Assembly (NCBI GenBank): GCA_963674705.1
Contig: OY771506.1
Span: 3,808,001-3,872,000, forward strand
DNA length: 64,000 nucleotides
Source of the DNA: Phycisphaeraceae bacterium
Lineage (GTDB): Bacteria; Planctomycetota; Phycisphaerae; Phycisphaerales; Phycisphaeraceae
Direction: 5' to 3'
The position numbers and the translations under genes are program-made. Shown in pieces: positions 4,197 through 26,072 of the stretch; within the stretch, counting starts at the first letter, position 1; the number at the start of each line of letters is the position of its first letter. The notes beneath the pieces are model-generated. The model saw only the letters and a list, made by a program, of their open reading frames with translations, was not told the DNA's origin and made no database searches.

Positions 4197-5234
4197 TCAG
4201 AACGGTCTTTCACGCATCGTGCAGGCCATGATCGACTTGGCGGTGTGCAGGCGGTTCTCGGCTTCCTGGAAGACGATGCTCTGCGGGCCGTCGATCACGG
4301 CGTCGGTTACTTCGCTGCCACGGTCGGCGGGCAGGCAGTGCATGTACACGGCAGAATCCTTCGCACGACTCATCCGCTTCTCATCGCAGATCCAGTCCTT
4401 GTGCTTGTGATTCATTTCAAGGCACGCTTTTTCATTCTCGTTGATTTCCGCCTGACTGGTCGCCTGGAGGCGTTCGAGCATCAGGTCATATACGCCCCAG
4501 CTCTTGGGATAGACGATGTCCGCATCCTCGAACGCGGCATCCATATCTTCGACGATCTGGAACGAACCGCCGGACTTCGCGGCGTTCGCCTTGGCCGACT
4601 CGATTGTCCGGTCGATCAGGTTGTATCCCTTCGGGTGTGCCAGCGAGACGTGCATCCCGAAACGCGTCATCAACGTGATTAAGCCCTGCGGCACACTTAA
4701 CGGCTTAGCGTACGATGGCGCATACGCCCATGTCACTGCGATCTTCAGGCCCTTGACGTTATCTTTGCCGAAGTGTTCGCGGATGGTCATGATGTCGGCC
4801 AGTGTTTGTGTCGGGTGGTCGACATCGCACTGCATGTTGATGACCGGCACGTTTGCGGCCTCCGCCATCTCACGCATGTACTTGTTACCCGCGCCGAGGA
4901 TCAGGTCGTGCCGGCAGCAGATGCCGTGGCCCATCGCGGCGAGGATCTTGCCGGTATCGGCAGCGGTTTCGCCGTGGCTGATCTGCGTGGCGCTGGAATC
5001 CAAAAAGTGTGCGTGCCCGCCGAGTTGAGTCATGCCTGCTTCAAATGCGTTGCGTGTGCGTGTGGATTTATCAAAAAACAGCAGGAACGCCGTCTGGTGG
5101 GGGAGCAACTGCGTCGGTTCGCCCCGGTGGAATTTGGCTTTCAACTCGTCCGCTGTTTCCAATAACAGATCGATCTCAGCGTCGCTGAGATCCTGCGTTT
5201 CGATATAATCTTTACCTTTGAGGCTGTTCGTCAT
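4197..5234 (-). CDS. ygeW: YgeW-like carbamoyltransferase (OTCase superfamily)
   Basis: STRTR, HPTQ, HCLPA, plus the YgeW-type signature AVTWAYAPSYAKPLSVPQG and IVYPKSW. Confidence 0.85.
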   Translation of the reverse strand: MTNSLKGKDYIETQDLSDAEIDLLLETADELKAKFHRGEPTQLLPHQTAFLLFFDKSTRTRNAFEAGMTQLGGHAHFLDSSATQISHGETAADTGKILAAMGHGICCRHDLILGAGNKYMREMAEAANVPVINMQCDVDHPTQTLADIMTIREHFGKDNVKGLKIAVTWAYAPSYAKPLSVPQGLITLMTRFGMHVSLAHPKGYNLIDRTIESAKANAAKSGGSFQIVEDMDAAFEDADIVYPKSWGVYDLMLERLQATSQAEINENEKACLEMNHKHKDWICDEKRMSRAKDSAVYMHCLPADRGSEVTDAVIDGPQSIVFQEAENRLHTAKSIMACTMRERPF

Positions 5235-5276
5235 CTATTCTGAATCCTTTATCAATCCTTAATTATGTCGATTAAC

Positions 5277-5305
5277 GTAAAGCCCGGGGATAGCCATCCC
5301 CGGGC
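5277..5305. repeat. REP-like palindrome
   Basis: gtaaa-gcccggggat-agcc-atccccgggc hairpin between ygeY and ygeW. Confidence 0.6.
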
Positions 5306-5316
5306 GTTAGATTTGA

Positions 5317-6594
5317 TTATGACTTTCTTCGTTTGACGTTCATTTTTGTTTTGTTTTCGCGCCCTGCAGCCAAATCACAATACGCCTGTCCGAACCCTGC
5401 GTAGAACGCGGCGCACTTGATCAGGTGATCGATCGGCACCGAGTCATTGACGGTATGGGCAACGTTTTCCGGTGCCGGGCCGAAGCCGACACAGGGGATG
5501 CCGTACATACCGGCGATGGATACCGCGTTCGTGCTGAACGTCCAGCGGTGCAATGTCGGGACTGCACCTAACACATCCCGATGTGCCTTGATCGCGGCCT
5601 GCACCTGCAAGGCATCCTCCGGCTCGCACCACGTCGGGAAGTATTTTTCCGTCTCGTAGGTCAGACCAGTGTAGCTGGGTCTTTCGTAGCGGAGCACCTC
5701 GACCTTCGCTTTGACACCCGCACGCTTGATCGCGTCTTTCACCTCACGCACGGCTGATGTCTTCGTATCCCCAACCGTCAGCCGACGGTCCAGGTGGATA
5801 AACGCCTCGCCCGGTACGGCACACATGCTCGGTGTCTTGCAATCGACATAACTGACGGTGATTGTCCCTTTGCCGAGGAACTCATCCGCCTTCAGACGCT
5901 TGTTGAGTTTCTCGATCTCGTTGGCGATCTTGGCAATCTTGTAGATGGCGTTGTCGCCCTTGTGGGGCATGGAGCCGTGGCAGCTCTTACCCTTGGCGGT
6001 GACGCCGATCTCCATCCGCCCGCGGTGACCCCGCAGGATCCAGCAGTTGGTCGAGTCGGTCACGACCACAGCGTCCGGCCTGATCTTGTCTTCATTAACG
6101 ATGTACTGCCAGCAGAGCCCGTCACAGTCTTCTTCCATGACGGTGAACGTCAGCAGCAGACAATACTCACTCAAATCGACTTTCAGGTCCCGCATGATCT
6201 TCGCGGCGTAAACCATTGCTGGGATCGCGCCTTCCTGGTCGCCGGCACCCCGCCCCCAGACCTTGCCATCCGCGATCTTGCCCTTGTACGGATCATGTTT
6301 CCACTCAGATCGGTCGCCGACACCGACAGTGTCGACGTGGGCGTCGATAGCAAGTAACTTCTTTCCTTTTCCGGGCTTACCGACCATTCCGAGCAGGTTG
6401 CCCATTTTGTCGACCCAGATCTTGTCAAAGGCCTTGGTCGACTCCATCTCCTTGCGGATCCGGGCGATGACTTTGCCTTCCTCGGCGGACTCCGAAGGGA
6501 TAGCGATCATGTCCCGCAAGAAGCGGATCATTTTGGGCTTATATTTTTCGGCTTGTTTTACGAACTGGGACGTTCCGGGGCTGGTTGTAGGCAT
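5317..6594 (-). CDS. ygeY: YgeY family M20 metallohydrolase
   Basis: DAHVDTVG, GRGAGDQEG, VMEEDCDGLCWQY, GHRGRMEI, WTFSTN; start moved to ATG 6594 (MPTTSPG). Confidence 0.9.
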   Translation of the reverse strand: MPTTSPGTSQFVKQAEKYKPKMIRFLRDMIAIPSESAEEGKVIARIRKEMESTKAFDKIWVDKMGNLLGMVGKPGKGKKLLAIDAHVDTVGVGDRSEWKHDPYKGKIADGKVWGRGAGDQEGAIPAMVYAAKIMRDLKVDLSEYCLLLTFTVMEEDCDGLCWQYIVNEDKIRPDAVVVTDSTNCWILRGHRGRMEIGVTAKGKSCHGSMPHKGDNAIYKIAKIANEIEKLNKRLKADEFLGKGTITVSYVDCKTPSMCAVPGEAFIHLDRRLTVGDTKTSAVREVKDAIKRAGVKAKVEVLRYERPSYTGLTYETEKYFPTWCEPEDALQVQAAIKAHRDVLGAVPTLHRWTFSTNAVSIAGMYGIPCVGFGPAPENVAHTVNDSVPIDHLIKCAAFYAGFGQAYCDLAAGRENKTKMNVKRRKS

Positions 6595-6827
6595 AGACCT
6601 GTCTTTATACCCGAGAACCTCAATGTCACAAAGCGAAATTTTCACAAGTTTCGCTTGGTGATTCAGGCCAAAGAGGCGACAATGTCGATTGGTGGAAGGA
6701 TAGTCCGCCCACGGAAGCGTTCGGATACCGTCATCCACTTCCAAAGGCGGGCACGAGTTGGCCACCGGTCAATGAGTAACCGGATCTGGGGATATCAGGG
6801 GGAGGACCCCAAGCGAGGCCAACGACT

Positions 6828-9497
6828 ATGAGTACTTCTACGCCTATGTCCACCACACCCCAAAGCACACTTACCTGCACCGTCAACGGCAAGCCCGTCA
6901 CGGTCGATCTGGCCGATGACGGCCTGACGCTGCTGGACGTCCTGCGCGACCAGCTCGGTATCACCTCGCCTAAGAACGGCTGCCAGCCGCAAGCCCAGTG
7001 CGGATGCTGCACGGTCCTCGTCGATGGCAAACCCATGCTCAGCTGTACCATGAAGCCCAGCCGGGTCGAGGGCAAATCCGTCACGACGCTGGAAGGTTTA
7101 GAACAAGAGCACCGCAAACAGATTGCCGACAGCTTCGTGCAATCCGGCGGCGTGCAGTGCGGTTTCTGTATCCCGGGCTTTGCGATGCGTGGCGTGGGGC
7201 TGTGCAATGAGAACCCGACACCGACCCGTGATGAGATTACCAAGGCGATCCGCCCTCACCTCTGTCGATGCACCGGTTACAAGCAGATCGTCGACAGCAT
7301 CGAACTCTACAGCAAGGTGCGTAACGGCCAACCGATGCCTGAGACGCCCGAAGCCGACAACTCGGGCAAAGTCGGTACCAGCCTGCCGCGTTACACCGGT
7401 CATGATGCTGTGCTGGGCGATCGTAAATACGTCGACGACATGACCGTCCCCGGCATGCTCTACGGCGCTCTGCGCCTGGCGGACCATCCCCGTGCAACGT
7501 TCGTCAAGCTCGATGCCAGTAAGGCGCTTGCGCTTGAGGGCGTGCATCATGTCTTTACCGCCAAGGATGTGCCGGGCGAGATCTACGTCGGGCTGATCGA
7601 AAAAGACTGGCCGGTATTCGTCGCACCTGGAACCGACACGCGTTGCACGGGTGATGTCATTGCTGCCGTGGTCGCGGACAACCAGAAACTGGCTCGCAAA
7701 GCCGCAGAGCTGCTCGAGATTGAATACATCGTCAAGGAGCCGGTGACGGACCCGGTTGAAGCCTTGAAGCCCGATGCGCCGCTGGTTCACCCGCAGCGTG
7801 GTACCAACCTGTTGAGTGAATCACGCCTCGTGAAGGGTGATGTCGAGGCCGCTTTCGCCAAGTGCGCCCACATCATCGAAGACACGTACCGCACGCAGCA
7901 CATCGAGCATATGTTCCTTGAGCCCGAGGCCTGTATCGCCGTGCCCGGAGAATCGGAAGCGGGGCGGACGCTCAAGGTCTACAGCCAGGGGCAGGGCGTG
8001 TTTGATGACCGCCGACAGATCGCATCGGTGCTCGGGATCGATGAAAGCCGTATAGAAGTACAACTAGTAAGCAACGGCGGGGCGTTCGGCGGGAAGGAAG
8101 ATATGTCTGTCCAGGGCCAGACTGCCTTGCTTGCATATCTCACCGGTAAGCCGATCAAGATCACGCTGACAAGGCCGGAGAGTTTCCGAGTTCACGTGAA
8201 GCGTCACCCGATTACACTCACCTATAAAATCGGCTGCGATGCTGAGGGGCATATCCTGGCCGTGAAGTCAAGCATCATCGGGGACAAGGGGGCGTATGCC
8301 TCGGTTGGTGCGAAGGTGCTCGAACGTGCGGGCGGGCACTGTACAGGCCCGTACCGTGTGCCGAACATCGATATGAAGTCGCTTGCGGTCTACACGAACA
8401 ACCCTGCTTGCGGTGCGATGCGCGGCTTCGGCGCAAACCAGGCGGCATTTGCGGTGGAAGGATTGCTCGACCGGCTTGCCGAGAAGTGCGGGATCGATGG
8501 CTACGACATCCGTGACCGTAATATCCTCGAGCCGGGCGAAGCTTTCGCGACCGGACAGGTACTGGATAAACCGTTCGGCTTGCGTCGCACGCTCGAAGCT
8601 GTCAAAGATCAATACAAGAGCGCGAAGTACGCCGGGATCGCTTGCGGGATCAAGAATGTCGGTATCGGTAACGGTATGCCCGACATCGGCCGCGCCGCGA
8701 TCACCATCGAAGCGCCCGATCGCTTGCGCATCCGTACCGGCTTCACCGAGATGGGGCAGGGATTATTTACGCTCTGCATCCAGTTCGCCCATGAAGCCAC
8801 GGGATTGGCGCCTGAACTGTTCCAATGCCAGACCGATACCACGCTCATGCTCGACTGCGGCCAGACCACGGCCAGCCGTGCGACCGTGCTTGCAGGCAAC
8901 GCGATCGCAGAAGCAGGCAAAGCGCTCAAGGCCGCGCTCGATCAGGGTAAGACCCTTGAAGACCTCGTCGACCAGACCTTCAAAGGCGAGTGGCGCTGCG
9001 ACTACACCAGCAAACTCGGCAAGGACATGGACAAACCCGGCGGGCCCAAGACGCACATCACCTACGGCTTCGCCACCCAGGTCGCGATTCTCGACGACGA
9101 TGGCGCACTCAAGAAAATGATCGCTTGCCACGATGTCGGCAAAGTCATCAATCCCACCCAGCTCAAGGGCCAGATGTATGGCTCGCTGCACATGGGGATC
9201 GGTTACGCGCTTTCCGAAGACTTCCCGGTCGAGGATGCGATCATCCAGGCGAAGAAGATCAACGACTGTGGCGTCCTGCGGGCGCACCAGATGCCTGAGA
9301 TGGAGTTGATCTTCATCGAAGAGCCAGACCCCGAATGCCCGCACGGCGCACGCGGCGTCGGCGAGATCGGCCTGGTCCCGACCGCCCCGGCTATCGCGGG
9401 TGCGATGTATCAATTTGATCATGTCATCAGGCGTCAATTGCCGATGACCGATTCGCCGGCAGGTCAGGCGATCAAGAAACCGAAACGGTCTGTTTGA
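6828..9497 (+). CDS. xdh: Selenium-dependent-type xanthine dehydrogenase, 2Fe-2S domain fused to molybdopterin-binding subunit
   Basis: GCQPQAQCGCC, QCGFCIPG, LCRCTGY, GGAFGGKED, AMRGFG, TTASR, GVGEIG; no FAD domain. Confidence 0.85.
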   Translation: MSTSTPMSTTPQSTLTCTVNGKPVTVDLADDGLTLLDVLRDQLGITSPKNGCQPQAQCGCCTVLVDGKPMLSCTMKPSRVEGKSVTTLEGLEQEHRKQIADSFVQSGGVQCGFCIPGFAMRGVGLCNENPTPTRDEITKAIRPHLCRCTGYKQIVDSIELYSKVRNGQPMPETPEADNSGKVGTSLPRYTGHDAVLGDRKYVDDMTVPGMLYGALRLADHPRATFVKLDASKALALEGVHHVFTAKDVPGEIYVGLIEKDWPVFVAPGTDTRCTGDVIAAVVADNQKLARKAAELLEIEYIVKEPVTDPVEALKPDAPLVHPQRGTNLLSESRLVKGDVEAAFAKCAHIIEDTYRTQHIEHMFLEPEACIAVPGESEAGRTLKVYSQGQGVFDDRRQIASVLGIDESRIEVQLVSNGGAFGGKEDMSVQGQTALLAYLTGKPIKITLTRPESFRVHVKRHPITLTYKIGCDAEGHILAVKSSIIGDKGAYASVGAKVLERAGGHCTGPYRVPNIDMKSLAVYTNNPACGAMRGFGANQAAFAVEGLLDRLAEKCGIDGYDIRDRNILEPGEAFATGQVLDKPFGLRRTLEAVKDQYKSAKYAGIACGIKNVGIGNGMPDIGRAAITIEAPDRLRIRTGFTEMGQGLFTLCIQFAHEATGLAPELFQCQTDTTLMLDCGQTTASRATVLAGNAIAEAGKALKAALDQGKTLEDLVDQTFKGEWRCDYTSKLGKDMDKPGGPKTHITYGFATQVAILDDDGALKKMIACHDVGKVINPTQLKGQMYGSLHMGIGYALSEDFPVEDAIIQAKKINDCGVLRAHQMPEMELIFIEEPDPECPHGARGVGEIGLVPTAPAIAGAMYQFDHVIRRQLPMTDSPAGQAIKKPKRSV

Positions 9498-9512
9498 TCT
9501 TCAATGTGATAA

Positions 9513-9620
9513 AGGGTCTAGGGTCTAGGGTATGGGGACTAGGGTCTAGCCGGAGTTAAGGGTCTGACTAACCACCAGACACGAGCCACCAGACACCAGC
9601 CACTAAGAACCAACCACCAA
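9513..9620. repeat. Degenerate heptamer tandem repeats (gggtcta)n and (accagac/c)n
   Basis: gggtcta gggtcta gggtatg gggacta gggtcta ... accagac acgagcc accagac accagcc. Confidence 0.7.
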
Positions 9621-9624
9621 AACC

Positions 9625-10227
9625 ATGTCCACCATCCACGCCATCATCCCCGCAGCGGGTCGATCAAATCGTATGGGCCAGCCCAAGCAGCTTCTGCCCG
9701 TTGATGGTCAACCGATGTTGTTGAGCGTGATCGATCCGCTTGTCTGTTGCGATCGAATAAACCGCACACTCGTTGTGACGAATAGCCTGGTTGCGGCTGA
9801 GATAGATATTGGTCAAACCGGCGCGATGGTCGTTTTAAATGACGAACCCGACGCTGAGATGATCGACTCGTTACGACTCGGAGTTGATGAACTGCAGAAG
9901 GTATGTGAATTGCAGGTTGATGATGGCATCCTGATCTGCCCCGGTGATCAGCCCGGGCTTGCCTCCGCAGAAGTCGCGGAATGCTGCTCGGTGTTTCAAC
10001 ATCAGCCTGGCAGGATCATCGTTGCCGCCCATGATGGCAAACGCGGGCACCCCATCATCTTCCCCGCATCACGCATCCCGTTCCTGATGTCACCCGCATG
10101 CGACACCGGTTTGCGAGAACTGGTATCAGCACATGAGGAAAATGTGGTTATGGTGGAAATCGCAAACTCGGCGGTATTGAGGAATATCAACACACCGGAT
10201 GACTATAAGCACATTTCAACCCAATGA
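9625..10227 (+). CDS. mocA: Molybdenum cofactor cytidylyltransferase (MocA/YgfJ family)
   Basis: IIPAAGRSNRMGQPKQLL, PGDQP, GKRGHPIIF, NINTPDDY; directly follows xdh. Confidence 0.85.
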   Translation: MSTIHAIIPAAGRSNRMGQPKQLLPVDGQPMLLSVIDPLVCCDRINRTLVVTNSLVAAEIDIGQTGAMVVLNDEPDAEMIDSLRLGVDELQKVCELQVDDGILICPGDQPGLASAEVAECCSVFQHQPGRIIVAAHDGKRGHPIIFPASRIPFLMSPACDTGLRELVSAHEENVVMVEIANSAVLRNINTPDDYKHISTQ

Positions 10228-10454: not shown

Positions 10455-11882
10455 TCAGAGTGTCATTAACGACATCAACGTTTCCACATCCGGCTGGTTT
10501 TCGATATCCATGATGTGTTCGCCGATCTTCTTACATCGCTCTTCGCCGACCACGTCCTTGCCGAGAGCAGTAAGTTTGACGCTGATTTCCTCGGCGGTCA
10601 TTGGATCGCGCGGGTCACCCTTCGGCACATCCACGCGTGTAAAGAAGCTTTTGCCGTCCTTGAGCGTCAGTGTTACCCGGCTCGGTTGATATTCGGGGAA
10701 CAACGATTCGAATTCTTCATTCGGTACAACCTTTACCATGTCCATCACCGGGATCAGCGACTTATCGTCGATGCGTTCCTGCTGGAACTGTAGCGGGGTG
10801 ACCATGCCATCTATCAAGCCGACTGCCATACAGTAGGGCAGCGAGTGGTCGGCGGTTTCCTTGCCGGTGGGGCGGTACTTGTGCGGATCACCCAGGATGT
10901 CCGCTGCGCGTGCAATCACTTCGACCTTGATCTCAGCAACATCATCAGGGCTGAGATTGTTTTCCTTCACACACTTCATCATCGCGGTCAGTGGCGCGTG
11001 GCTGAGCGCTTCGATCGGGAAGGATTTGAAGCCGCAATCCAAGATGCGGTAATGATCGCTCGGCGACTTCGGCAGGTCTTTAATCATGCCGTCCGCGTCG
11101 AACGTGCAAGGCTTCCCGCCACTGACAGAATGCCCGAACACATGGAACAGACCTTCCTTGCCGTCATAGATATGCTCCGGCCCGGTGTAACCGAGTTTCG
11201 CGAGGAAGGCGGACTCAAGGCCGACGCGCGTCGCCCAGGGGTCGACCGTGTTCTTCATGTTTGTAAGTTTGCCCGCTGTGACAGCGCCAAGCGAGCCAGT
11301 ACGGCTGGCACTGATACCGACCGCGTTGACCATTTCATCGACCGTCAAGTTCAGCAGACGCCCGGGGCCGTAAGCTGCAGCGAAACCGGTCAGCGTCGCG
11401 TGATGCCAGCCGTATTCGCGTATGCCCGGACGACCGATTTCAACCAGTCGCATCTCGACTTCATAAGCGATGACGGACGCGAGGATCAGGTCTTTACCTG
11501 AAAGCTGATTCGCCTGACAAACCGCGAGCGGTCCTGAGAGCAGGTCGCTCGGGTGGGATGGGTCCGCCTTCCAGTAGATGTCGTTGTAATCCATCGACCG
11601 GATCATGTGGCCGTTCAGGAACGCGGCATCGACGGGATTGGTTCTGAATCCACTGACAAAGCAGCTACAACCGCCCCCGATTTCACGCATCAATATCTGG
11701 TGATGCATCAACAGGATCTTCGCATCTTCCTGTTGGCTACCCCCCAGCGCACAACCCAATGAATCAAACCAGAACAGCTTCGCCCGTTCGATCGCCTCGG
11801 GGCTCAGGTCTTCGTATTTCAGGTTGCATGCCCACTCGGCCAGGTCGTAGCTGATAAAGTCTTTGGTTTTGAATGAACCCAT
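10455..11882 (-). CDS. MmgE/PrpD family dehydratase
   Basis: DSLGCALGG, RSMDYND, SHPSD, GWHHAT, GYTGP, ETADHSLPY, PKGDPRDP. Confidence 0.9.
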   Translation of the reverse strand: MGSFKTKDFISYDLAEWACNLKYEDLSPEAIERAKLFWFDSLGCALGGSQQEDAKILLMHHQILMREIGGGCSCFVSGFRTNPVDAAFLNGHMIRSMDYNDIYWKADPSHPSDLLSGPLAVCQANQLSGKDLILASVIAYEVEMRLVEIGRPGIREYGWHHATLTGFAAAYGPGRLLNLTVDEMVNAVGISASRTGSLGAVTAGKLTNMKNTVDPWATRVGLESAFLAKLGYTGPEHIYDGKEGLFHVFGHSVSGGKPCTFDADGMIKDLPKSPSDHYRILDCGFKSFPIEALSHAPLTAMMKCVKENNLSPDDVAEIKVEVIARAADILGDPHKYRPTGKETADHSLPYCMAVGLIDGMVTPLQFQQERIDDKSLIPVMDMVKVVPNEEFESLFPEYQPSRVTLTLKDGKSFFTRVDVPKGDPRDPMTAEEISVKLTALGKDVVGEERCKKIGEHIMDIENQPDVETLMSLMTL

Positions 11883-11894
11883 GATTCCGCTCCT

Positions 11895-11920
11895 CTTCGC
11901 GCTGTTCGCGCCTTCGCGGT
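11895..11920. repeat. (cgcgaag)n-type repeat
   Basis: Its reverse complement accgcgaaggcgcgaacagcgcgaag matches 44791-44816 with one mismatch. Confidence 0.75.
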
Positions 11921-11929
11921 TAACTCCAA

Positions 11930-13045
11930 TTACACGTGTCTTGCCACTTCCTCTGCTACTTCCAGCGTTGTGTTATTCAACCCGACGTCATACGTGCCGA
12001 CCTTGTGCTCCTTGATCACCTTAGCGATCGCGGCTTCGAGACGCTCTGCCATATCATCTTCACTCAGCCAGTCGAACATCAGCTTGCAGGTCAGAAGCAT
12101 CGCCATCGGGTTGACCTTGTACATGCCGTCGTACTTCGGAGCGGAGCCGTGCGTCGGCTCGAAGACGGCATAGTCGTCACCGATGTTTGCTGCCGAGGCA
12201 AAGCCTAGCCCGCCGACGAGCCCCGCACAGAGGTCGGAAATGATGTCGCCGAACATATTCTCTGCAACCAGCACGTCATACGTGTGCGGATTCTTGATCA
12301 TCCACATGCAGATTGCGTCGATGTTGGCTTCCCAGAGCGGGATGTCATAATTCTTGGCAACTTCACGGGCGACGCGTGTCATCAAGCCACCGGTTTCACG
12401 CAAAACATTTGGCTTTTCGACCAGCGTCACGCTTTTACGCCCATGCGTCTTGGCATATTCATACGCTTGAGTGACGATGCTCTCGCAACCCTGCTTACTC
12501 ATGATGCGGGTCGATAGCGCGACATTCTCAAGCCCCTTTTCTTTCCACTTCACCATCTTGGGATTCACGCACATGGCATCGTAAACCTTCTCCGGCAGTG
12601 GGAACCACTCGACACCGCCGTACATGCCTTCGGTGTTCTCACGGAAAACAACCAGGTCGATATCGTCACGGTAGTTCAGCGGGTTGCCGGGATAGGCCTT
12701 GCACGGGCGGAGGTTCGTGTGCAGGTTGAATAGTTGGCGTAGCTTTACAATCGGGCTGAAGTAGACCAAGCCCTTGTCCTTCAGTTCCGGCGCCAGTTCA
12801 TCGTTCGCTTCATCACGCGGCTTGCTGGTGATCGCGCCGAACAAAGCACAATCGGTCTGCTTGAGGATATCGATCGTGCGGTCGGGCAGGGGGTTGCCTT
12901 CCTTGCACCAGAATTCCCAGCCGATGTCAGCAGGGATGTACTCGGCGTCGAACTTCATCGCGTCCAGCACGATCCGTGCCGCTTCCATGACGTCCTTGCC
13001 CACGCCGTCGCCCGTCATCCATGCGATCTTGTACTTCGCCATCAT
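11930..13045 (-). CDS. Isocitrate/isopropylmalate dehydrogenase family; homoisocitrate dehydrogenase-like
   Basis: GDGVG, YFSPIVKLR, RENTEG, KPNV, NMFGDIISD, FEPTHGSAPKY; start at MMAKYK. Confidence 0.85.
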   Translation of the reverse strand: MMAKYKIAWMTGDGVGKDVMEAARIVLDAMKFDAEYIPADIGWEFWCKEGNPLPDRTIDILKQTDCALFGAITSKPRDEANDELAPELKDKGLVYFSPIVKLRQLFNLHTNLRPCKAYPGNPLNYRDDIDLVVFRENTEGMYGGVEWFPLPEKVYDAMCVNPKMVKWKEKGLENVALSTRIMSKQGCESIVTQAYEYAKTHGRKSVTLVEKPNVLRETGGLMTRVAREVAKNYDIPLWEANIDAICMWMIKNPHTYDVLVAENMFGDIISDLCAGLVGGLGFASAANIGDDYAVFEPTHGSAPKYDGMYKVNPMAMLLTCKLMFDWLSEDDMAERLEAAIAKVIKEHKVGTYDVGLNNTTLEVAEEVARHV

Positions 13046-13079
13046 TGTTTCCTTGAATTGCAGGTTCCAAGTGTGTGAA

Positions 13080-15053
13080 TCAGTTAGAAATCTGTGATCG
13101 CGCCACGGCCTCAGCGCCGCCGGCGACAACCAGTTTTTGTGCCGTCGGGCTCAGTGCCGGGAACGGGAATGCTTTTTTGTCTACTCGCACAACCGATCCC
13201 TGGAAGTCGACCACGATCTTCGGCCCGACAATGGTTGGTTTTTCGTTGTCTGAAAGTGTTTCCGCTAGGTAATCGACCAGTTCCGTACATTCGATACAAA
13301 GGAAGCCGTTGTTGAACGCATTACGTCGGTATGTTTCGCTGTAACTTGCGGCGATCACGCAGGGCACACCTTTATACTTCAAGCATGTAGCCGCCTGTTC
13401 CCGGCTCGATCCTGTACCGAAGTTGCGCCCGCTGACGACGATGTCGCCGTCCTGGTAAATGCTGTTGAATTCGGGATCATAATTCTCGAACGCGACGTCT
13501 TTCATCTGTTGCGGCGTCATGTCGTCTTTGTATGTCCACTTGCCGGCGTAGATGCCGTCGGTGTTCATATTGTCCTTCGGCATGAAAAGTGCGCGTCCGC
13601 TGACTTCTGCTGGGAAGCCTTCAATGATCTTCGCACTTTTCGAGGCCGATGCAGCCGGTGTGTTGCGTTTGATATTACGTTTAGGTTCGGTCAGTTCATA
13701 ACCGGTCGGCGCACAGATATAGCCGGCCAACGCAGAAGCAGCGACGACAGCAGGCGATCCAAGATACACCTGGGAATCCGCGCTACCCATGCGTCCCTTG
13801 AAGTTCCGATTGGTCGCACTGATCGCGACCTCGCCCGGTTCAGTCGTACCTTCGCCAAGTCCGATGCAAGGCCCGCAGCCCGGCGGCAGGGGGGTCGCTC
13901 CCGCGTTGAGCAGAGCCTGCCAGATGCCGGCCACTTCAGCTTTATCCTGAATGTCGGACGATGCGGCGGCAACGTAGAACGAAACACCTTTTGCGATGCG
14001 TTTACCCTTAACGATCTCGGCCGCATCCCGCAGATCTTCCAGCCTCGCGTTGACACACGACAGCAGATACGCCTTTTGGATCGCTATTCTTTCCTGCTCG
14101 ATCACAGGCAGTGCATGCATCGTCTTGACTTCGTTCGGCCCACACACGTGCGGGATCACCGTACCCAGGTCCAGCTCGATCTCGACCGCGTACTCTGCAT
14201 CTTCATCTGCGACAAGTTTACCTTTCCACCAAGACTCGATCTCGGTGAAGTTATATCCGCCCAGGCTACCGTCACGCCGAATGCCCGGCCGCGTTACCGA
14301 GCCGAAGTATTGAACGCGGTCTTCAAGATAAAGCCGCAATACTTCATCGAACGGGAATACCCCCGCCAATGCGCCCCATTCCGTGGTCATATTCGCGATC
14401 GACATACGCTGGTCCATCGACAGGCATTCCACGCCCGGCCCGACGAACTCCACCGCATGATTCAATACTTCATCATTATTGAACAGACCGCAAAGCGCGA
14501 TGATGACATCTTTACCCACCACGCCGGGCTTGAGCCTGCCTTTCAATACACACTTGGCGACCTTCGGCACCTGCCACCACGTCTGCCCCGTCGCCCAGAT
14601 ACAAGCGGCATCTGTCCGTACGACCGGCGTCCCCAGCGCGCTGATAGCACCGTACAGGTTCGAGTGTGAATCGCTGCCCACGATCATGCTGCCCGGTATG
14701 ACATAACCTTGCTCCACCATCACCTGATGGCTGATCCCTGTCCCGGCGGGATAAAAGTCAATCTCGTGTTGATCGGCGTGCTTATGAATTTTCGCATACT
14801 TGCCGAGATTCTCAGGCGAGTGGTTCTGGATGTCGTGGTCGATCGCGAACACCGGCTGATGTGGGTCGGCGACCTTGGGCTCAACGCCTTCGGGAAAAAT
14901 GCTCTTGAACTTCGGGATCACCGCGCCGGTGTTGTCATGCGTCATCACATGCTTGGGTCTGATCGTAACGATCGATCCTTGCGTCGCCGACTCACCAGCC
15001 TCTAAGCCTACGGCATAGCGTGTCGCTATTTTTTCAACCAGTGTCAGACCCAT
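13080..15053 (-). CDS. lysF: Homoaconitase, single-chain (fungal Lys4/LysF-like)
   Basis: MTHDN, DHDIQN, GSDSHSN, SCVN and GCGPCIG (three 4Fe-4S Cys), TNRNFKGRMG, fused swivel domain NFGTGSSREQA. Confidence 0.8.
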   Translation of the reverse strand: MGLTLVEKIATRYAVGLEAGESATQGSIVTIRPKHVMTHDNTGAVIPKFKSIFPEGVEPKVADPHQPVFAIDHDIQNHSPENLGKYAKIHKHADQHEIDFYPAGTGISHQVMVEQGYVIPGSMIVGSDSHSNLYGAISALGTPVVRTDAACIWATGQTWWQVPKVAKCVLKGRLKPGVVGKDVIIALCGLFNNDEVLNHAVEFVGPGVECLSMDQRMSIANMTTEWGALAGVFPFDEVLRLYLEDRVQYFGSVTRPGIRRDGSLGGYNFTEIESWWKGKLVADEDAEYAVEIELDLGTVIPHVCGPNEVKTMHALPVIEQERIAIQKAYLLSCVNARLEDLRDAAEIVKGKRIAKGVSFYVAAASSDIQDKAEVAGIWQALLNAGATPLPPGCGPCIGLGEGTTEPGEVAISATNRNFKGRMGSADSQVYLGSPAVVAASALAGYICAPTGYELTEPKRNIKRNTPAASASKSAKIIEGFPAEVSGRALFMPKDNMNTDGIYAGKWTYKDDMTPQQMKDVAFENYDPEFNSIYQDGDIVVSGRNFGTGSSREQAATCLKYKGVPCVIAASYSETYRRNAFNNGFLCIECTELVDYLAETLSDNEKPTIVGPKIVVDFQGSVVRVDKKAFPFPALSPTAQKLVVAGGAEAVARSQISN

Positions 15054-15096
15054 AGGGTTCCCGTCCTAAATGAAGTGTGTGACTCCAGGCCCCGAT

Positions 15097-15675
15097 TTAT
15101 TTAATCGGATGCTTACCAAGATACTTCGCGATATCGAAGTCGACGAAGTCCGCGTGATGGAAGATGATCGATTCGATGGTGCGTTCGACCTTATCCCCTT
15201 CGTGGCTATGGGTCGCGACGATGTGCATGACTTCGGCCGGGATGCCGTGCTTATAGCACATCGCGACACCGCTGAACGGATGCCGCAGCATGTCACCGAA
15301 GTGACCCTTGATAAGATTGCCATCCTTATCACGATCGAACTCCAGGGGCTTGCCCACGTCCGCGAGCATCGCGCCGGCGATCAGAATATCCTTGTTCACG
15401 GGTATCTTGCCTTTGTAGATCGTCAAAAGCGTGTCCGCGATCACGATACACTGGCGGATGCATGAGTTGAGGTGTTCGATAAATCGCAAATCGATGTCAC
15501 CTGCCAGCAATGTGAAGGGGATTGCTTTGAGTTCTTCGAACCTCCAACCCTTCCCACCAGCGCCGGTTTCGATCGCCTCGGACCACACGGCCGCGACTTT
15601 CTCTTGCAAGCTCTTATCTGTGATCTGATGAATATCGGGGAATAAGTCCGCGATCTGGTCGACTGTGTATGGCAT
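15097..15675 (-). CDS. HD/HDIG-domain protein with degenerate HD motif
   Basis: IEH...LADVGK (HD position reads AD), HPFSG, ATHSHEG, HHADFVD. Confidence 0.75.
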   Translation of the reverse strand: MPYTVDQIADLFPDIHQITDKSLQEKVAAVWSEAIETGAGGKGWRFEELKAIPFTLLAGDIDLRFIEHLNSCIRQCIVIADTLLTIYKGKIPVNKDILIAGAMLADVGKPLEFDRDKDGNLIKGHFGDMLRHPFSGVAMCYKHGIPAEVMHIVATHSHEGDKVERTIESIIFHHADFVDFDIAKYLGKHPIK

Positions 15676-15686
15676 CGATTGTCTCC

Positions 15687-16469
15687 TTACAACGTCCGCG
15701 CCTCGGGACCATCATAACTATGATCGACCGGATCGATCTTACGCATCCGTTTTTCGCGTGTCTGCTCCTCGACCACATGGGCGACCAGGCCCGGGGTCCG
15801 TGCTATCATGAATAGACCATTCATCACGGCCGGATCGAACCCGAGTTGCGCCAGGACCGCCCCGATCGCGCCGTCCACATTGATCGGCAGTTTCTTGCCC
15901 GAGTCGGCAAAAACCTGCTCGACCGCCTTGGCCGCGTCGATGTACAGCCCGTTTACGCCTGCCTGCTCGGTCAGCTCGAACAAACGGGCGGTGCGCGGGT
16001 CTGCCGTGTGGTAGCGGTGTCCGAAGCCGCTCATCCGCTCGCCGCGGTTTTTCATGTCTGCAAGCTCGCTACGAGCCGCATCTGACAGGGATTGTTTGTC
16101 GTTCTGGGACCGCTCGATGATCTTCTTCAATTGCAGGGCACAGTCCTGAATTGCCCCGCCGTGGGATTTGTTGATCGACATCACGCCCGCTGCGACGGAC
16201 TGGCTCAAGGCAGCGCCTGAACTCGCCACGGTCCGTGCCGCCAGAACGCTCGGGGGCGTGGCGCCGTGGTCGATGCTTGAGACCAGGATCGCGTCCATCA
16301 GCTTGCCGACTTCAGCGCTGGGTAATTCACCTCGCAGGATCAAATAGACGGCCTGACCAAATGTCACATTGCCCATCAGTTCGGCGATGTTATAGCCGCG
16401 GACCGCGACACGGTTCGGCTTGATCTCGGTGACGGCTGTCTTCCACGCATTGGGATTCGATTCACTCAT
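15687..16469 (-). CDS. Citryl-CoA lyase-like protein (short citrate synthase family)
   Basis: 260 aa; WKTAVT, DHGATPPS, HGGA, GFGHRYHTADPR, INVDGAI. Confidence 0.85.
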   Translation of the reverse strand: MSESNPNAWKTAVTEIKPNRVAVRGYNIAELMGNVTFGQAVYLILRGELPSAEVGKLMDAILVSSIDHGATPPSVLAARTVASSGAALSQSVAAGVMSINKSHGGAIQDCALQLKKIIERSQNDKQSLSDAARSELADMKNRGERMSGFGHRYHTADPRTARLFELTEQAGVNGLYIDAAKAVEQVFADSGKKLPINVDGAIGAVLAQLGFDPAVMNGLFMIARTPGLVAHVVEEQTREKRMRKIDPVDHSYDGPEARTL

Positions 16470-16481
16470 CTCAAGCCTTTC

Positions 16482-17396
16482 TCAGTTGGAGCCGATCGCT
16501 TTGAGTGCGGCCTCGGGCAGGTCGCCGAAACTGGTTACCACGGTCGCGCCGGCTTCGGTCAAAGCCTTGACCTTGCCGTCGTGCGTGCCTTTACCGCCCT
16601 CGATAATCGCACCGGCATGGCTGAATCGCGTGCCTTCCTTTGCCGCCTTCCCGCCGATGTATGCAACGACAGGCTTAGTCACCCGGCCTTCTTTCATCAG
16701 CGCCGCAAGGTCTTCTTCCTGTGACCCACCGATTTCTCCGAAGATCACGATCGCTTCGGTGTCCGGATCGTCCTGGAACATCAACGCGACATCGGGGAAT
16801 CGCAAGCCGAGTACCGAATCACCGCCGACGTGACAGATCGTGCTCAATCCGATCCCGACCTTGCCAAGGTAATACGCAGTGGATGAACTCATGCCGCCCG
16901 ATCGGCTGATCACGCCGACCTTGCCCGGTTTGAACCATGCCTTGGCGCTTTCCGCGCGTCCGCCGATCATACCGAGCACAGCTTTGCCCGGGCTGATGAT
17001 GCCCAGCGTGTTCGGTCCGACAAAATGCGCATCATGAGACTTGGCAACATCTGCGATCTGGATCGCATCCCAGACCGGTACACGGTCCGGCACGAGCACG
17101 ACGAGTTTGACGCCGGCTTCAAACGCTTCGATCGCCGCTGCTTTAACGAGCTTGGCTGGAACGAACACGACCGACACATCCGCCGGCCCGCCGTGTTTTC
17201 CCCTGCAAAATGCTTCTGCTTCCTTAACCGTATCAAAGACCGGCAAGCCTTCGACTTCCTGCCCGCCTTTCTTAGGCGTGCAACCGCCGACAACATTCGT
17301 GCCGTAACCGAGCATCAGTTTGGTACGTGCCTGGCCCTCTCGGCCGGTAATGCCCTGAACGATGACACGCTTCTTTTCGTCGATGAGTACTGCCAT
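16482..17396 (-). CDS. Acyl-CoA synthetase (ADP-forming) alpha subunit, SucD-like / citryl-CoA synthetase small subunit-like
   Basis: VQGITGREG, GPNTLG, SRSGG, GEIGG, phospho-His motif RFSHAGA. Confidence 0.85.
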   Translation of the reverse strand: MAVLIDEKKRVIVQGITGREGQARTKLMLGYGTNVVGGCTPKKGGQEVEGLPVFDTVKEAEAFCRGKHGGPADVSVVFVPAKLVKAAAIEAFEAGVKLVVLVPDRVPVWDAIQIADVAKSHDAHFVGPNTLGIISPGKAVLGMIGGRAESAKAWFKPGKVGVISRSGGMSSSTAYYLGKVGIGLSTICHVGGDSVLGLRFPDVALMFQDDPDTEAIVIFGEIGGSQEEDLAALMKEGRVTKPVVAYIGGKAAKEGTRFSHAGAIIEGGKGTHDGKVKALTEAGATVVTSFGDLPEAALKAIGSN

Positions 17397-17399
17397 GAT

Positions 17400-18950
17400 T
17401 CAGTTCCCTCCCCCGATTGTTGCAACCGCGCCGATAAGCTCATCCAGCCCCGGCACATCCAGTTCAACATAAACCACCGGCTTACCCGCACGACGCAACT
17501 CAATCTCGCAGGCAATAAATTCCGAATCCTTCCCGACCGCGTCCTCCTCACTGACAGCGAGAACAGGAACGCCGCCTTCATCCTTGAGCAGGCCTGATGA
17601 TTGTTCGATGACCAATTGCGTGGTCTTGGTATCGCATGAAGCGGAATCGATCCAGACTTTCCCGCCGTTGATGGGAATCGAAGTGCCTGTACCGACAAAC
17701 GCGGGTAACTTCGGATCGCGCGGCTGCCACAGCGCCGCATCAGATTCGGCGATCAACTCAGCAAAACGCTGCGAGATCATGCGAGGCGAATCATCCTTGC
17801 GATAGCCTTCGACCTTGGCGGGCAGGTCCTTGCAGGCATCTTCCAATACTTCAACCGCTCGGTCTTCACTGTTGCCACCGAGTCGAATCACTGCGGGGAT
17901 GTTCAGTTCCAGTTCGAGGAACGCCTTGGTTAAACCATACGCCGACCAGAACTGCTCCTGGCTGGCAACACCCGACCCGGAGCCGAAGTAGCCGACCAGG
18001 CCGGGTTGACTCAGGATGATTCTCGCTGCGCGGTAGACCTTCGCGGCCGAGGGATTGCCCGATGTATCCGTGAAGTTGGCGATCGTGAATCCTTCGCTCA
18101 TGATCGCATCCATCGACATCATCGAACCGCCGCCGCCCGCGCCATGGAAACCGACCAGGCCTTTTGAGCCTTCCGCCGCTTTGGTATTGAGCTGCGCGAA
18201 GTAGAACGTTCCGCGGTGGTCCGCTTGCTCGATCTCGTAAGCGATCCGCTCCAAGGCGGTGGGGGGGTGGTCCAGTTCACGCGCGATTTCGATCCCCAGT
18301 TCCGGATGCCGGAATACCGCGTAGTCGTCGATCGTCATCCGGCAGTCTGCCGCGATCACGCGACCATCCGTCGTCGTAACCAGCGGGTTGATTTCAAGCG
18401 AGCGTGCTTCGTATGTCTTCGCGACTTCGAACACGCCTTGCACTGATTTGGCGACTTGGTCATGCAGCTTCGCATTGATTTCGGATGCTGCGATTAATGC
18501 TTTCAGCTTCGCCTCATCCGGTCCGGCCTTCGGATCGCACGCTAACCGATGCACCTGCCCGGCGCGCTGCTCGATCCCCGATCCGCCGACCAGTGAAAGC
18601 AGGATCATCGGCGCCCTTGCCGCATCATCCAGCGCCAGTGAGACGAACAGCTCCTGATCGATCGGCACCAGTTCCTCGACCAGCACCTCCGTCACCGGGA
18701 AGTTGCCGACCGTCATCGCCAGAAGTCGTTTGGCTTCGTCCTCGACCTGCTGGGGTGTGTCCGCAAAGACAACCCCCCCCATCGCCTTTCGGCCGGTGGT
18801 CCAGGCCTGGATTTTGATGACGACCGATCCACCCAGTGATTCGGCGATCCGGGCAGCTTCCGCGGGTGTTGAAGCGGGGCCTCCGCGTGGTATTTGAAAG
18901 CCGTGCTTGGCCAGCAAAGCTTTGGCCTGATACTCGTGAATACGTGCCAT
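17400..18950 (-). CDS. Acyl-CoA synthetase (ADP-forming) beta subunit, SucC-like ATP-grasp, with C-terminal extension
   Basis: IHEYQAKALL, GRKAMGGV, LEINPL, GAGGGGSM, ANFTDTSGNP, IRLGGN. Confidence 0.85.
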   Translation of the reverse strand: MARIHEYQAKALLAKHGFQIPRGGPASTPAEAARIAESLGGSVVIKIQAWTTGRKAMGGVVFADTPQQVEDEAKRLLAMTVGNFPVTEVLVEELVPIDQELFVSLALDDAARAPMILLSLVGGSGIEQRAGQVHRLACDPKAGPDEAKLKALIAASEINAKLHDQVAKSVQGVFEVAKTYEARSLEINPLVTTTDGRVIAADCRMTIDDYAVFRHPELGIEIARELDHPPTALERIAYEIEQADHRGTFYFAQLNTKAAEGSKGLVGFHGAGGGGSMMSMDAIMSEGFTIANFTDTSGNPSAAKVYRAARIILSQPGLVGYFGSGSGVASQEQFWSAYGLTKAFLELELNIPAVIRLGGNSEDRAVEVLEDACKDLPAKVEGYRKDDSPRMISQRFAELIAESDAALWQPRDPKLPAFVGTGTSIPINGGKVWIDSASCDTKTTQLVIEQSSGLLKDEGGVPVLAVSEEDAVGKDSEFIACEIELRRAGKPVVYVELDVPGLDELIGAVATIGGGN

Positions 18951-24488: not shown

Positions 24489-25979
24489 TCACTTCTCCCC
24501 CGGCCACTTCCAGTTCGGATGGCGGATATACGTCAGCGCCTCCTTCACACTCACGCCGTCATTCGCCTGCTTGCCAAGCATCTGGCAGCGTTCATGCCAT
24601 TTATCGCGTTCCCACTTGCCGGGCTTGTATTGCTTGCGCGTCGGGACCTTGTTGCCTACGAGCATGACGAGGAAGCCCTCGACGCCGAAGTCGTTGACGA
24701 AGTCGGGAACAAGGTGGCGGATCAGCCTGGATGGACCGTTCTCTTCGTAAAAATCCAGCAGGTGTTGGATATTGGATAGGTCGGTTTCCTCCCGGCAGCG
24801 CTGCCAGAAGGGGGTATCCAGCGACGTGTTGAACTTGTAGTGAAGCCCAAGAAAGTCGCGGATCAACAGCCACTCTTTTTCGCGCAGGTCGTTGTACATC
24901 GAACGCATCGTCGCGGAGTGTTCGAGCGTCGATTGCTGGAGCATCACCCCGATCGTTTTACACTGGTTGCAGATCACCATCAATGCCGTTGCTTCCAAAG
25001 GCTCAACAAATCCCGCCGAGTTGCCGATCGCGACCACGTTCTTCACCCATGACCGTTTCCTGAACCCGGAAGTAAACGGCACGAAGCGCGGCTCACCCGG
25101 CACCTTCGGGTTCTTCTTCTTAAATGCAGCAAACGCCTCATCATCGCTGATCATATCGCTGCAATAAACGTAACCGCGGTTAATGAAGTGTTCATGTTCG
25201 ATCTGCCAGCACCAGCCGCAATCCATCTGCTCCGCCGTCGTGTAAGGCAGGATCGGCTCGTTCGTCCGCTCCCACCCGCCGACCACCGCACGATTGCAAA
25301 ACAGTGTCTTATCAAAACTCACGAACCGCTCATCCAGCACGCCACTGATCAACTCGTCCCTGAATCCGCTGGCATCGACGAAGAAGTCCGCTTCGATCCG
25401 CTGGCCGTCTTCAAGATGGATCGCGGCGATGCCTTGCTCCCCTTGCTCAGCCCGTGTCATCTTCCCATCGGTGAATTCGATCCCCGCCAAGCGAGCTTCT
25501 TCTTCAAGCGTCCGCACCAGGTTCTCGTTTTCGATATGAAACGAATAAGCGGAAGTGATCTGCGGCGCACGGTTAGGCAGACGCGGAAAAGCCTTGCCCG
25601 CCTCCATCAACGCCGCCGGCATCGATCCGTTGGAAAACTGATCCATGCAGAAAAAACCGTTCGGCACCTTCAGCTCGTTAAATTCCTGATCGAGCTGCTC
25701 GCCAAACGCATAGTAAAACGTGCCCCGAGGCCCCCAGCGAAACCGGATCCCCCGCTTAAACGTCGGCTTCGCCTTCTCATAAAACCGCCTCGGTGCAATC
25801 CCCATCATGCCGAAAAGATGCCCGACAAAATTAGGCGTGCTCCCTTCGCCCACCCCGATCACACCAATATCCGGGTCACGGACGATATGTACGTTGAGTT
25901 GCGGCAGCTTGCGCTTAAGTGTTATTGCCGCAATCAGGCCCGCACTGCCGGAGCCTAAGACAATCACTTTATGTATCAT
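24489..25979 (-). CDS. Flavin-dependent halogenase, tryptophan halogenase family
   Basis: GSGSAG, IGVGEGS, catalytic-Lys region TFKRGI, DASG, WCWQI, GFVEPLEAT. Confidence 0.88.
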   Translation of the reverse strand: MIHKVIVLGSGSAGLIAAITLKRKLPQLNVHIVRDPDIGVIGVGEGSTPNFVGHLFGMMGIAPRRFYEKAKPTFKRGIRFRWGPRGTFYYAFGEQLDQEFNELKVPNGFFCMDQFSNGSMPAALMEAGKAFPRLPNRAPQITSAYSFHIENENLVRTLEEEARLAGIEFTDGKMTRAEQGEQGIAAIHLEDGQRIEADFFVDASGFRDELISGVLDERFVSFDKTLFCNRAVVGGWERTNEPILPYTTAEQMDCGWCWQIEHEHFINRGYVYCSDMISDDEAFAAFKKKNPKVPGEPRFVPFTSGFRKRSWVKNVVAIGNSAGFVEPLEATALMVICNQCKTIGVMLQQSTLEHSATMRSMYNDLREKEWLLIRDFLGLHYKFNTSLDTPFWQRCREETDLSNIQHLLDFYEENGPSRLIRHLVPDFVNDFGVEGFLVMLVGNKVPTRKQYKPGKWERDKWHERCQMLGKQANDGVSVKEALTYIRHPNWKWPGEK

Positions 25980-26072
25980 CCCACGCCCTCCAACTATGAT
26001 CAAACAAACGATATGTAAGCTTCTGAACTATATGTAATCTACCAGCTTGCTGGCAGTGTTATCAAGTATGTA

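Follow-up and report, generated by a model that had tools for sequence, protein, structure and literature searches.

The 64,000-nucleotide stretch analysed here (the window; positions 3,808,001 to 3,872,000 of contig OY771506.1, Phycisphaeraceae bacterium, assembly GCA_963674705.1) carries between 10455 and 18950 seven open reading frames (ORFs), all on the minus strand and separated by gaps of 3, 12, 11, 43, 34 and 47 bp, the 34-bp gap being counted to the dehydrogenase ATG at 13045 (the next ATG is at 13042). An earlier note, made from the letters alone, had described seven co-oriented genes with gaps of 3 to 47 bp; coordinates and gaps were confirmed, and profile searches agree with its family calls for all seven. 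From the 5' end of the minus strand, the features are:

17400..18950, minus strand: SucC/CcsA-like acyl-CoA synthetase beta subunit, putative homocitrate-CoA ligase, 516 aa (PF08442, 127 bits)
17451..17663, minus strand: degenerate C-terminal 2x[4Fe-4S] ferredoxin-like domain of the beta subunit, about residues 430-500 (from Cys counts in homologs)
16482..17396, minus strand: SucD/CcsB-like synthetase alpha subunit, 304 aa (phospho-His motif FSHAG)
15687..16469, minus strand: citryl-CoA-lyase-family protein with citrate-synthase fold, putative (S)-homocitryl-CoA lyase, 260 aa (NCBIfam cut-offs passed)
15097..15675, minus strand: HD-fold protein of the HDIG/HD family with Ala-Asp for the HD pair, member of the core module, 192 aa (fold match)
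13080..15053, minus strand: single-chain Lys4/LysF-type homoaconitase, 657 aa (TIGR00139)
11930..13045, minus strand: homoisocitrate-dehydrogenase-like beta-decarboxylating dehydrogenase with NADP-type motif (Iso_dh; AksF2 best model)
10455..11882, minus strand: MmgE/PrpD-family protein of its own clade, putative (S)-homocitrate dehydratase, 475 aa (PF03972 and PF19305)

The operon is a real, conserved module. Among 80 loci retrieved from GTDB by way of the homoaconitase, the full seven-gene set recurs in the same order in 19 (at least 40% identity; 18 of the 55 loci having long flanks), with the HD gene inverted in one of them (L027). This recurrence argues that the operon is more than a chance assembly, and the synteny that the earlier note had asked about is thus found elsewhere. 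Within 10 kb of the homoaconitase the dehydrogenase is present in 49 of the 80 loci, the HD gene in 46, a lyase-like gene in 37, SucD-like and SucC-like genes in 35 and 34, and PrpD in 31; in four loci (L009, L011, L013 and L019) SucD and the lyase form a single fused ORF. Full sets were seen only in records titled Planctomycetota, and loci titled Zixiibacteriota or Ignavibacteria hold five or six of the seven genes, PrpD being encoded at another site of the genome. The nearest named relative is a locus titled Phycisphaeraceae (L001; protein identity 94-99%). The distribution is patchy: in an even sample of 150 genomes of the class the synthetase was found in none and the homoaconitase in three, and this sample is too carrier-poor for a direct test of associations. 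The genome-wide tests reported below were made on genomes from 50 of the 80 loci, picked for longer contigs and lineage spread, 35 of which carry the synthetase (the carriers). No recurrent partner gene beyond the seven was found in the 80 loci, except for GNAT acetyltransferase genes, present singly or in pairs in about 19 of them (e.g. L058:7763-8359), commonly placed between the genes for the lyase and the HD protein, and absent in the host. In seven loci, of which L104 does not span the host's upstream region, no Rfam riboswitch was found, only two tRNAs. Scans for promoters (2 vs 4.8) and terminators (11 vs 8.3) did not rise above chance.

The synthetase subunits are relatives of succinyl-CoA synthetase (SCS) that score below its equivalogs, the beta subunit reaching 214 against a SucC cut-off of 370 and the alpha subunit 293 against a SucD cut-off of 336; the host's own SucC and SucD pass theirs. 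The beta subunit has a weak match to PF16114 (Citrate_bind, 25.5 with a cut-off of 26.8), and its best match in the Protein Data Bank (PDB) is the Thermus SCS beta chain, with 185 bits vs 106 for citryl-CoA synthetase (CCS). The alpha domain of a fused homolog likewise scores 268 bits with SCS and 177 with CCS or ATP-citrate lyase (ACL), SCS chains outranking 6hxq and 6hxj. Where solved SCS beta chains have the loop GGI(V/T)R(C/A)D, the operon has GSGVASQEQ, near-invariant in 28 rows, and the alpha subunit has SRSGGM in place of the SCS motif SRSGTL. In a 29-row tree the ligase is separated from the host's SucC by a very long branch, and hosts with diaminopimelate (DAP) genes, with LysW genes or with neither are intermixed. 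The ferredoxin-like tail holds 8 Cys in six of six homologs titled Zixiibacteriota or Ignavibacteria, 2-5 in the other 26 rows and 2 in the host, with weak, under-cut-off Fer4_9 matches in all three homologs tested. The lyase exceeds the citryl-CoA lyase cut-offs NF004869 (266 vs 212), NF004866 and NF004868, has 6hxp, a citryl-CoA lyase, as best PDB match (E 3e-57), and conserves the motifs DHG, HGGA, GHR, DPR and NVDGA. A two-subunit ATP-grasp CoA ligase with a citrate-synthase (CS)-fold lyase is also the arrangement of Hydrogenobacter thermophilus CcsAB and Ccl and of ACL, whose alpha layout is repeated by the SucD-lyase fusions; the operon differs from these in that its ligase subunits score nearer to SCS and carry the extra tail, and in that it is linked to homoaconitase, a homoisocitrate dehydrogenase (HICDH)-like gene and PrpD rather than to genes of the reductive tricarboxylic acid (TCA) cycle.

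The following two enzymes point to homocitrate. The homoaconitase, a single chain with the motifs DSHS, SCVN and CGPC, passes TIGR00139 (718 vs a cut-off of 530), as do three homologs. The dehydrogenase reads SPIVKLR where solved isocitrate dehydrogenases (IDHs) and the host IDH have S(L/I/V)NV(A/T)(L/M)R and the Thermus HICDH has GAIRYLR; the Asn of the IDHs, which lies four residues ahead of the first conserved Arg, has given way to Ile in every one of the 40 rows shown (of 47), and the dehydrogenase has LFGA.TS. We take this Asn/Ile position to have a role in substrate choice. All 35 rows shown (of 47) have the cofactor loop HGSAPKY, as compared with HGTAPKY in the host NADP-IDH and HGSAPDI in LeuB and the Thermus HICDH; the NAD-type motif HGSAPDI is not what the operon's dehydrogenase carries, and KY, as opposed to DI, is presumably a sign of NADP-type cofactor use, in agreement with the host NADP-IDH. 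On these motifs, together with the genomic associations described below, homocitrate chemistry is the probable function of the operon. The alpha-aminoadipate pathway (fungal Lys20/21, aconitase plus Lys4/LysF, and Lys12; also that of Thermus) is alike in its Lys4-type homoaconitase, its HICDH-like dehydrogenase and its separate enzyme for the step between homocitrate and homoaconitate, fungal homoaconitases catalysing only the step between homoaconitate and homoisocitrate according to PMC3556520. The operon differs from it in having no homocitrate synthase (HCS), as the earlier note had stated and as the identification of its seven families bears out, in having PrpD in place of aconitase, in its NADP-type motif and in its DAP-type host.

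The presence of PrpD may find its explanation in the chirality of homocitrate. CS-fold synthases and lyases are generally Si-specific. When 2-oxoglutarate takes the place of oxaloacetate, the acetyl-derived arm, pro-S, outranks the longer arm, so that the product of a Si-type enzyme would be (S)-homocitrate. In fungi the pathway proceeds through (R)-homocitrate (PMC3556520), and, according to PMC5690661 and PMC3556520, aconitases dehydrate the oxaloacetate-derived arm and PrpD the acyl-CoA-derived arm of (2S,3S)-methylcitrate. A Si-type lyase would thus handle the mirror form of the fungal compound, on the arm that aconitases leave alone, hence the need for PrpD. The lyase product should be (S)-homocitrate, and PrpD is predicted to accompany any pairing of Lys4 with a Si-type enzyme and to be unneeded where the synthase is of the classical kind. 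The close PrpD clade (at least 45% identity) is full-length in 47 of 49 non-Chloroflexia genomes with the homoaconitase, the other two being a fragment and a miss. It is found in none of four Chloroflexia, all with HCS and LysX, which count as a single observation since they are kin, and in none of 27 genomes without the homoaconitase, among which 13 hold a distant homolog only; in three genomes (G157, G181 and G194) an HCS-like gene and PrpD occur together. The PDB matches of this PrpD are all distant (cis-aconitate decarboxylase, IDS epimerase and PrpD). The 2-methylcitrate cycle likewise joins a Si-type CS-fold enzyme (PrpC) to a PrpD-family dehydratase acting on the acyl-CoA-derived arm, and the operon differs from it by its distinct PrpD clade, the lack of PrpB and a dehydrogenase, instead of a lyase, as the next enzyme.

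The HD-fold protein has A105-D106 instead of the His-Asp pair in 35 of 35 rows, in all of which H68, H132, H151, H156, H173, H174 and D176 are invariant. Its predicted model (predicted local distance difference test score 91) has YhaM as best fold match (Z 15.9, root-mean-square deviation 3.0, 162 aligned), a match that gives no function; by sequence no PDB match was found, and an Atlas search gave HD clusters only. The gene is kept with all three cleavage kits, including the CitF kits described below (L167-L169), and in synthetase-free loci, which argues that the protein belongs with the tricarboxylate steps. That it opens a homocitrate lactone is a guess only.

The host genome (G000) is one contig of 5.5 Mb, 96.6% complete, and holds separate gltA, acnA, NADP-IDH, sucC, sucD and sucAB genes over the NCBIfam cut-offs, with a second IDH-like gene and leu genes; its sucC and sucD lie 1.2 Mb apart. 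The lysine route is DAP-type (dapF, dapB and lysA found), no LysX over cut-off is present in the genome, and no HCS, the three HMGL matches being LeuA, CimA and an aldolase-like protein; the host thus lacks the alpha-aminoadipate set for lysine biosynthesis (HCS plus LysX or saccharopine enzymes). The separate TCA genes and the DAP lysine genes make the operon an extra module, part of neither the host TCA cycle nor lysine synthesis. The possibility that the operon supplies the sole TCA enzymes of the genome, which the earlier note had wanted checked, was accordingly rejected, and lysine synthesis by the operon in this host is not supported. With regard to lysine catabolism, the host has a piperideine-6-carboxylate dehydrogenase (Pcd) over cut-off, and no acyl-CoA dehydrogenase (PF00441) of any kind and no HglS were found in its genome. 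None of its six class-III aminotransferases is named lysine 6-transaminase, one having no family at E 1e-100. In the namZ-pcd region (L092:6144-9329 in the host, compared with L153:3052-7511 in the close relative G153) namZ abuts pcd in the host; in G153 a saccharopine-dehydrogenase (saccharopine-DH)-like gene separates the two, and in G152 and G126 such a gene precedes pcd.

Elsewhere in the window, a citramalate synthase (43130-44761, TIGR00977 over cut-off) is encoded, and a 504-aa ORF (24489-26003) may encode a flavin-dependent tryptophan halogenase, which it resembles. The divergent upstream transketolase and the downstream purine-catabolism genes recur in 3-4 close relatives only and lie outside the module. 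The purine-catabolism cluster (4197-10227: selenium-dependent xanthine dehydrogenase with TIGR03311 over cut-off, YgeY hydrolase, YgeW-like carbamoyltransferase and a MocA-like gene) adjoins the operon in three close relatives only.

We consider it somewhat likely, from gene families, motifs and genomic context, that the operon encodes a reversible ATP-linked route between 2-oxoadipate plus CO2 and acetyl-CoA plus 2-oxoglutarate, with breakdown as its most likely direction in the host. In that direction homoisocitrate would arise from 2-oxoadipate through NAD(P)H-dependent carboxylation by the dehydrogenase and be turned into cis-homoaconitate by the Lys4-type enzyme; PrpD would hydrate cis-homoaconitate to (S)-homocitrate, from which the two-subunit synthetase would form homocitryl-CoA with ATP and the CS-fold lyase would release acetyl-CoA and 2-oxoglutarate. 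In relatives with LysW genes and without HCS, the same enzymes may work in the forward direction: the chemistry of ACL, aconitase and IDH is near equilibrium, which makes one module for both directions plausible. The earlier note had drawn such a complete (homo)citrate chain; it is supported by the motifs, the synteny and the genome context, and is still a predicted chain, in which the HD protein has no part.

Breakdown is suggested by the company that the operon keeps. Pcd is found in 29 of the 35 carriers, as compared with 37 of the 150 class-sample genomes. Glutaryl-CoA dehydrogenase (GCDH, screened with a protein query and confirmed against solved GCDH) or HglS is present in five of 35 carriers (three GCDH, two HglS) vs 18 of 27 Pcd-positive non-carriers (13 GCDH, five HglS), the latter being 27 of the 34 Pcd-positive, homoaconitase-negative class genomes after seven same-genus repeats were dropped; in the host's own order HglS occurs in five of six such non-carriers. 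This scarcity in carriers favours breakdown, the operon standing where the known 2-oxoadipate sinks are mostly missing (Fisher test p = 4e-5, not relied on because kin are not independent). These sinks, a 2-oxoacid dehydrogenase with GCDH or else HglS, share with the operon the likely substrate and the link to lysine catabolism, but they release CO2, whereas the operon route would fix it, would need no O2 and would cost ATP and NAD(P)H. HglS requires O2 (bioRxiv 2020.01.30.927905). Among the 80 loci, saccharopine-DH-like genes flank the module in four and Pcd-like genes in two, and in L061 and L069 prpD is followed by genes resembling those of the kynurenine pathway, whose kynurenine labels are below cut-off or presumed. 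In eight of ten synthetase-negative genomes with the homoaconitase CitF is found, linked to HD/PrpD in the three loci opened: a CitD-CitE fusion and CitF lie beside the HD/PrpD core in L167 and L168, and CitF with a Ccl-type lyase adjoins a saccharopine-DH-like gene in L169. No ATP is gained with such CitF kits, and citrate lyase is a catabolic enzyme.

Several findings weigh against this reading. The PrpD protein belongs to the MmgE/PrpD superfamily and scores 55-105 where the PrpD equivalog cut-offs are 458-950, and the best model of the dehydrogenase, the homoisocitrate dehydrogenase AksF2, is not passed (316, cut-off 540). Nine of the 27 Pcd-positive non-carriers, eight of them from one family, have neither GCDH nor HglS, and so are without any of the three 2-oxoadipate routes; GCDH is present in six of the eight CitF genomes, so that its exclusion fails for the CitF kit. 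The flanking-gene cases number five among the 80 loci, a minority. A source of 2-oxoadipate was not found in the host, whose genome gave neither a saccharopine-DH-like gene, the dehydrogenase for lysine entry in its relatives, nor a kynurenine-pathway match. The carrier genomes are metagenome-assembled genomes (MAGs) that come without completeness figures, and kin among them are not independent. To these points are added the lysine-gene distribution and the activity of LysF, which are the basis of the first two of the following rivals.

The homocitrate chemistry could instead run mainly forward, from acetyl-CoA and 2-oxoglutarate through homocitryl-CoA to homocitrate with a gain of ATP and on to 2-oxoadipate, in place of HCS, and be a leftover or feed some other product in DAP hosts. 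LysX is over cut-off in 14 of the 35 carriers; of the others, nine carry lysA alone and 12 carry neither gene. Among the 14 LysX carriers HCS turned up in just two (G157 and G181), leaving 11 with neither HCS nor lysA, which favours synthesis in that group; this absence is provisional, since the query missed the divergent HCS-like gene of G194. In all 13 carrier LysX loci opened, lysW-X-Y-Z stand with lysK or lysJ, and representatives pass the LysW-aminoadipate kinase and LysW-lysine hydrolase models; in G183 (L117) the lys cluster is inserted inside the operon. In G182, G183 and G155, the last of which has no synthetase, lysK is followed by a second CS-fold gene at the place that HCS holds in G157 and G181; this gene is a candidate Si-type homocitrate synthase. 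The LysW genes could, however, serve to salvage aminoadipate, and a mainly forward role leaves aside the host and nine other carriers with lysA and no LysX, as well as the 12 with neither. In G194, moreover, the HCS-like gene lies in the lys cluster and a separate CitF, lyase and PrpD cluster stands beside a saccharopine-DH-like gene. As the main role of the module, forward use is unlikely. It rather looks as if direction were split by host group, with breakdown in some and lysine synthesis in others. Both directions had been proposed in the earlier note, and host groups matching each were found: DAP-type hosts or hosts with no lysine pathway, in which other 2-oxoadipate sinks are lacking, for the one, and LysW hosts without HCS for the other. 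Here the operon probably serves the breakdown of a lysine product, and in relatives without the usual first enzyme it possibly starts lysine synthesis.

As to the lysK-following genes themselves, a divergent citryl-CoA-lyase-like gene of about 283 aa lies at L117:14017-14871, L118:13075-13923, L115:12330-14006 and L142:988-2247, and L108 and L114 have HCS at this position. G154 and G155 combine this gene with the HD, homoaconitase, dehydrogenase and PrpD genes, without the synthetase.

Citrate, which the earlier note had left open, survives as a minor and rather improbable rival, in which the operon would be a second, non-standard ACL/aconitase/IDH segment connecting acetyl-CoA, citrate and 2-oxoglutarate. 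The lyase has its best structural relative in the Hydrogenobacter citryl-CoA lyase, the SucD-lyase fusion is laid out like ACL alpha, the cofactor motif is NADP-type as in IDH, and PMC3556520 gives Aspergillus fumigatus LysF some activity with citrate and isocitrate. However, GltA, AcnA and two IDHs are already encoded in the host genome, a citrate route would require neither PrpD nor a Lys4-type enzyme alongside AcnA, all rows shown have Ile for the IDH Asn, and the pattern of HglS, GCDH, Pcd and lys genes would go unexplained.

Another tricarboxylate, a longer homologue or an alkylcitrate of some unknown catabolic or cofactor pathway, is very unlikely: the synthetase, PrpD and dehydrogenase each form a clade of their own below all equivalog cut-offs, the HD protein is unexplained and the host has no obvious 2-oxoadipate source, but the homoaconitase equivalog is passed, the genomic links point to lysine genes in both directions and GNAT is the only further recurrent partner. 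A variant 2-methylcitrate cycle for propionate, also allowed by the earlier note and suggested by the PrpD-family and CS-fold genes, is hardly credible and was rejected on chemistry, since 2-methylisocitrate is a tertiary alcohol that a beta-decarboxylating dehydrogenase such as that of the operon cannot oxidise, and it sits poorly with the low PrpD scores and with the absence of PrpB from the operon (a motif that we take to be that of PrpB matched a single 196-aa host ORF).

The reversible homocitrate module is apparently undescribed: the literature search, with most subscription papers outside its coverage, found no description of a pathway with this gene set, in line with the earlier note. 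Tentatively, it can be put in general form: (S)-homocitrate may be used across several phyla in a fully reversible module made of an ATP-homocitrate lyase (SCS-like ligase plus Ccl-type lyase), a PrpD dehydratase, Lys4 and an NADP-linked homoisocitrate dehydrogenase, which would act as an O2-independent, CO2-fixing 2-oxoadipate breakdown in some hosts and as an ATP-yielding, synthase-free start of lysine synthesis in others. The use of (S)-homocitrate, and not of its (R)-form, is a sharp prediction and cheap to check. If true, citryl-CoA lyase and ACL-like matches in MAGs of Planctomycetota and Zixiibacteriota need not be signs of a reductive TCA cycle, the ACL alpha layout may have arisen a second time in the SucD-lyase fusions, and four enzyme families would acquire new activities. 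For these bacteria, the module would represent a third fate of 2-oxoadipate, CO2-fixing and O2-independent, in which all carbon is kept, and a way in which lysine synthesis could be started without homocitrate synthase.

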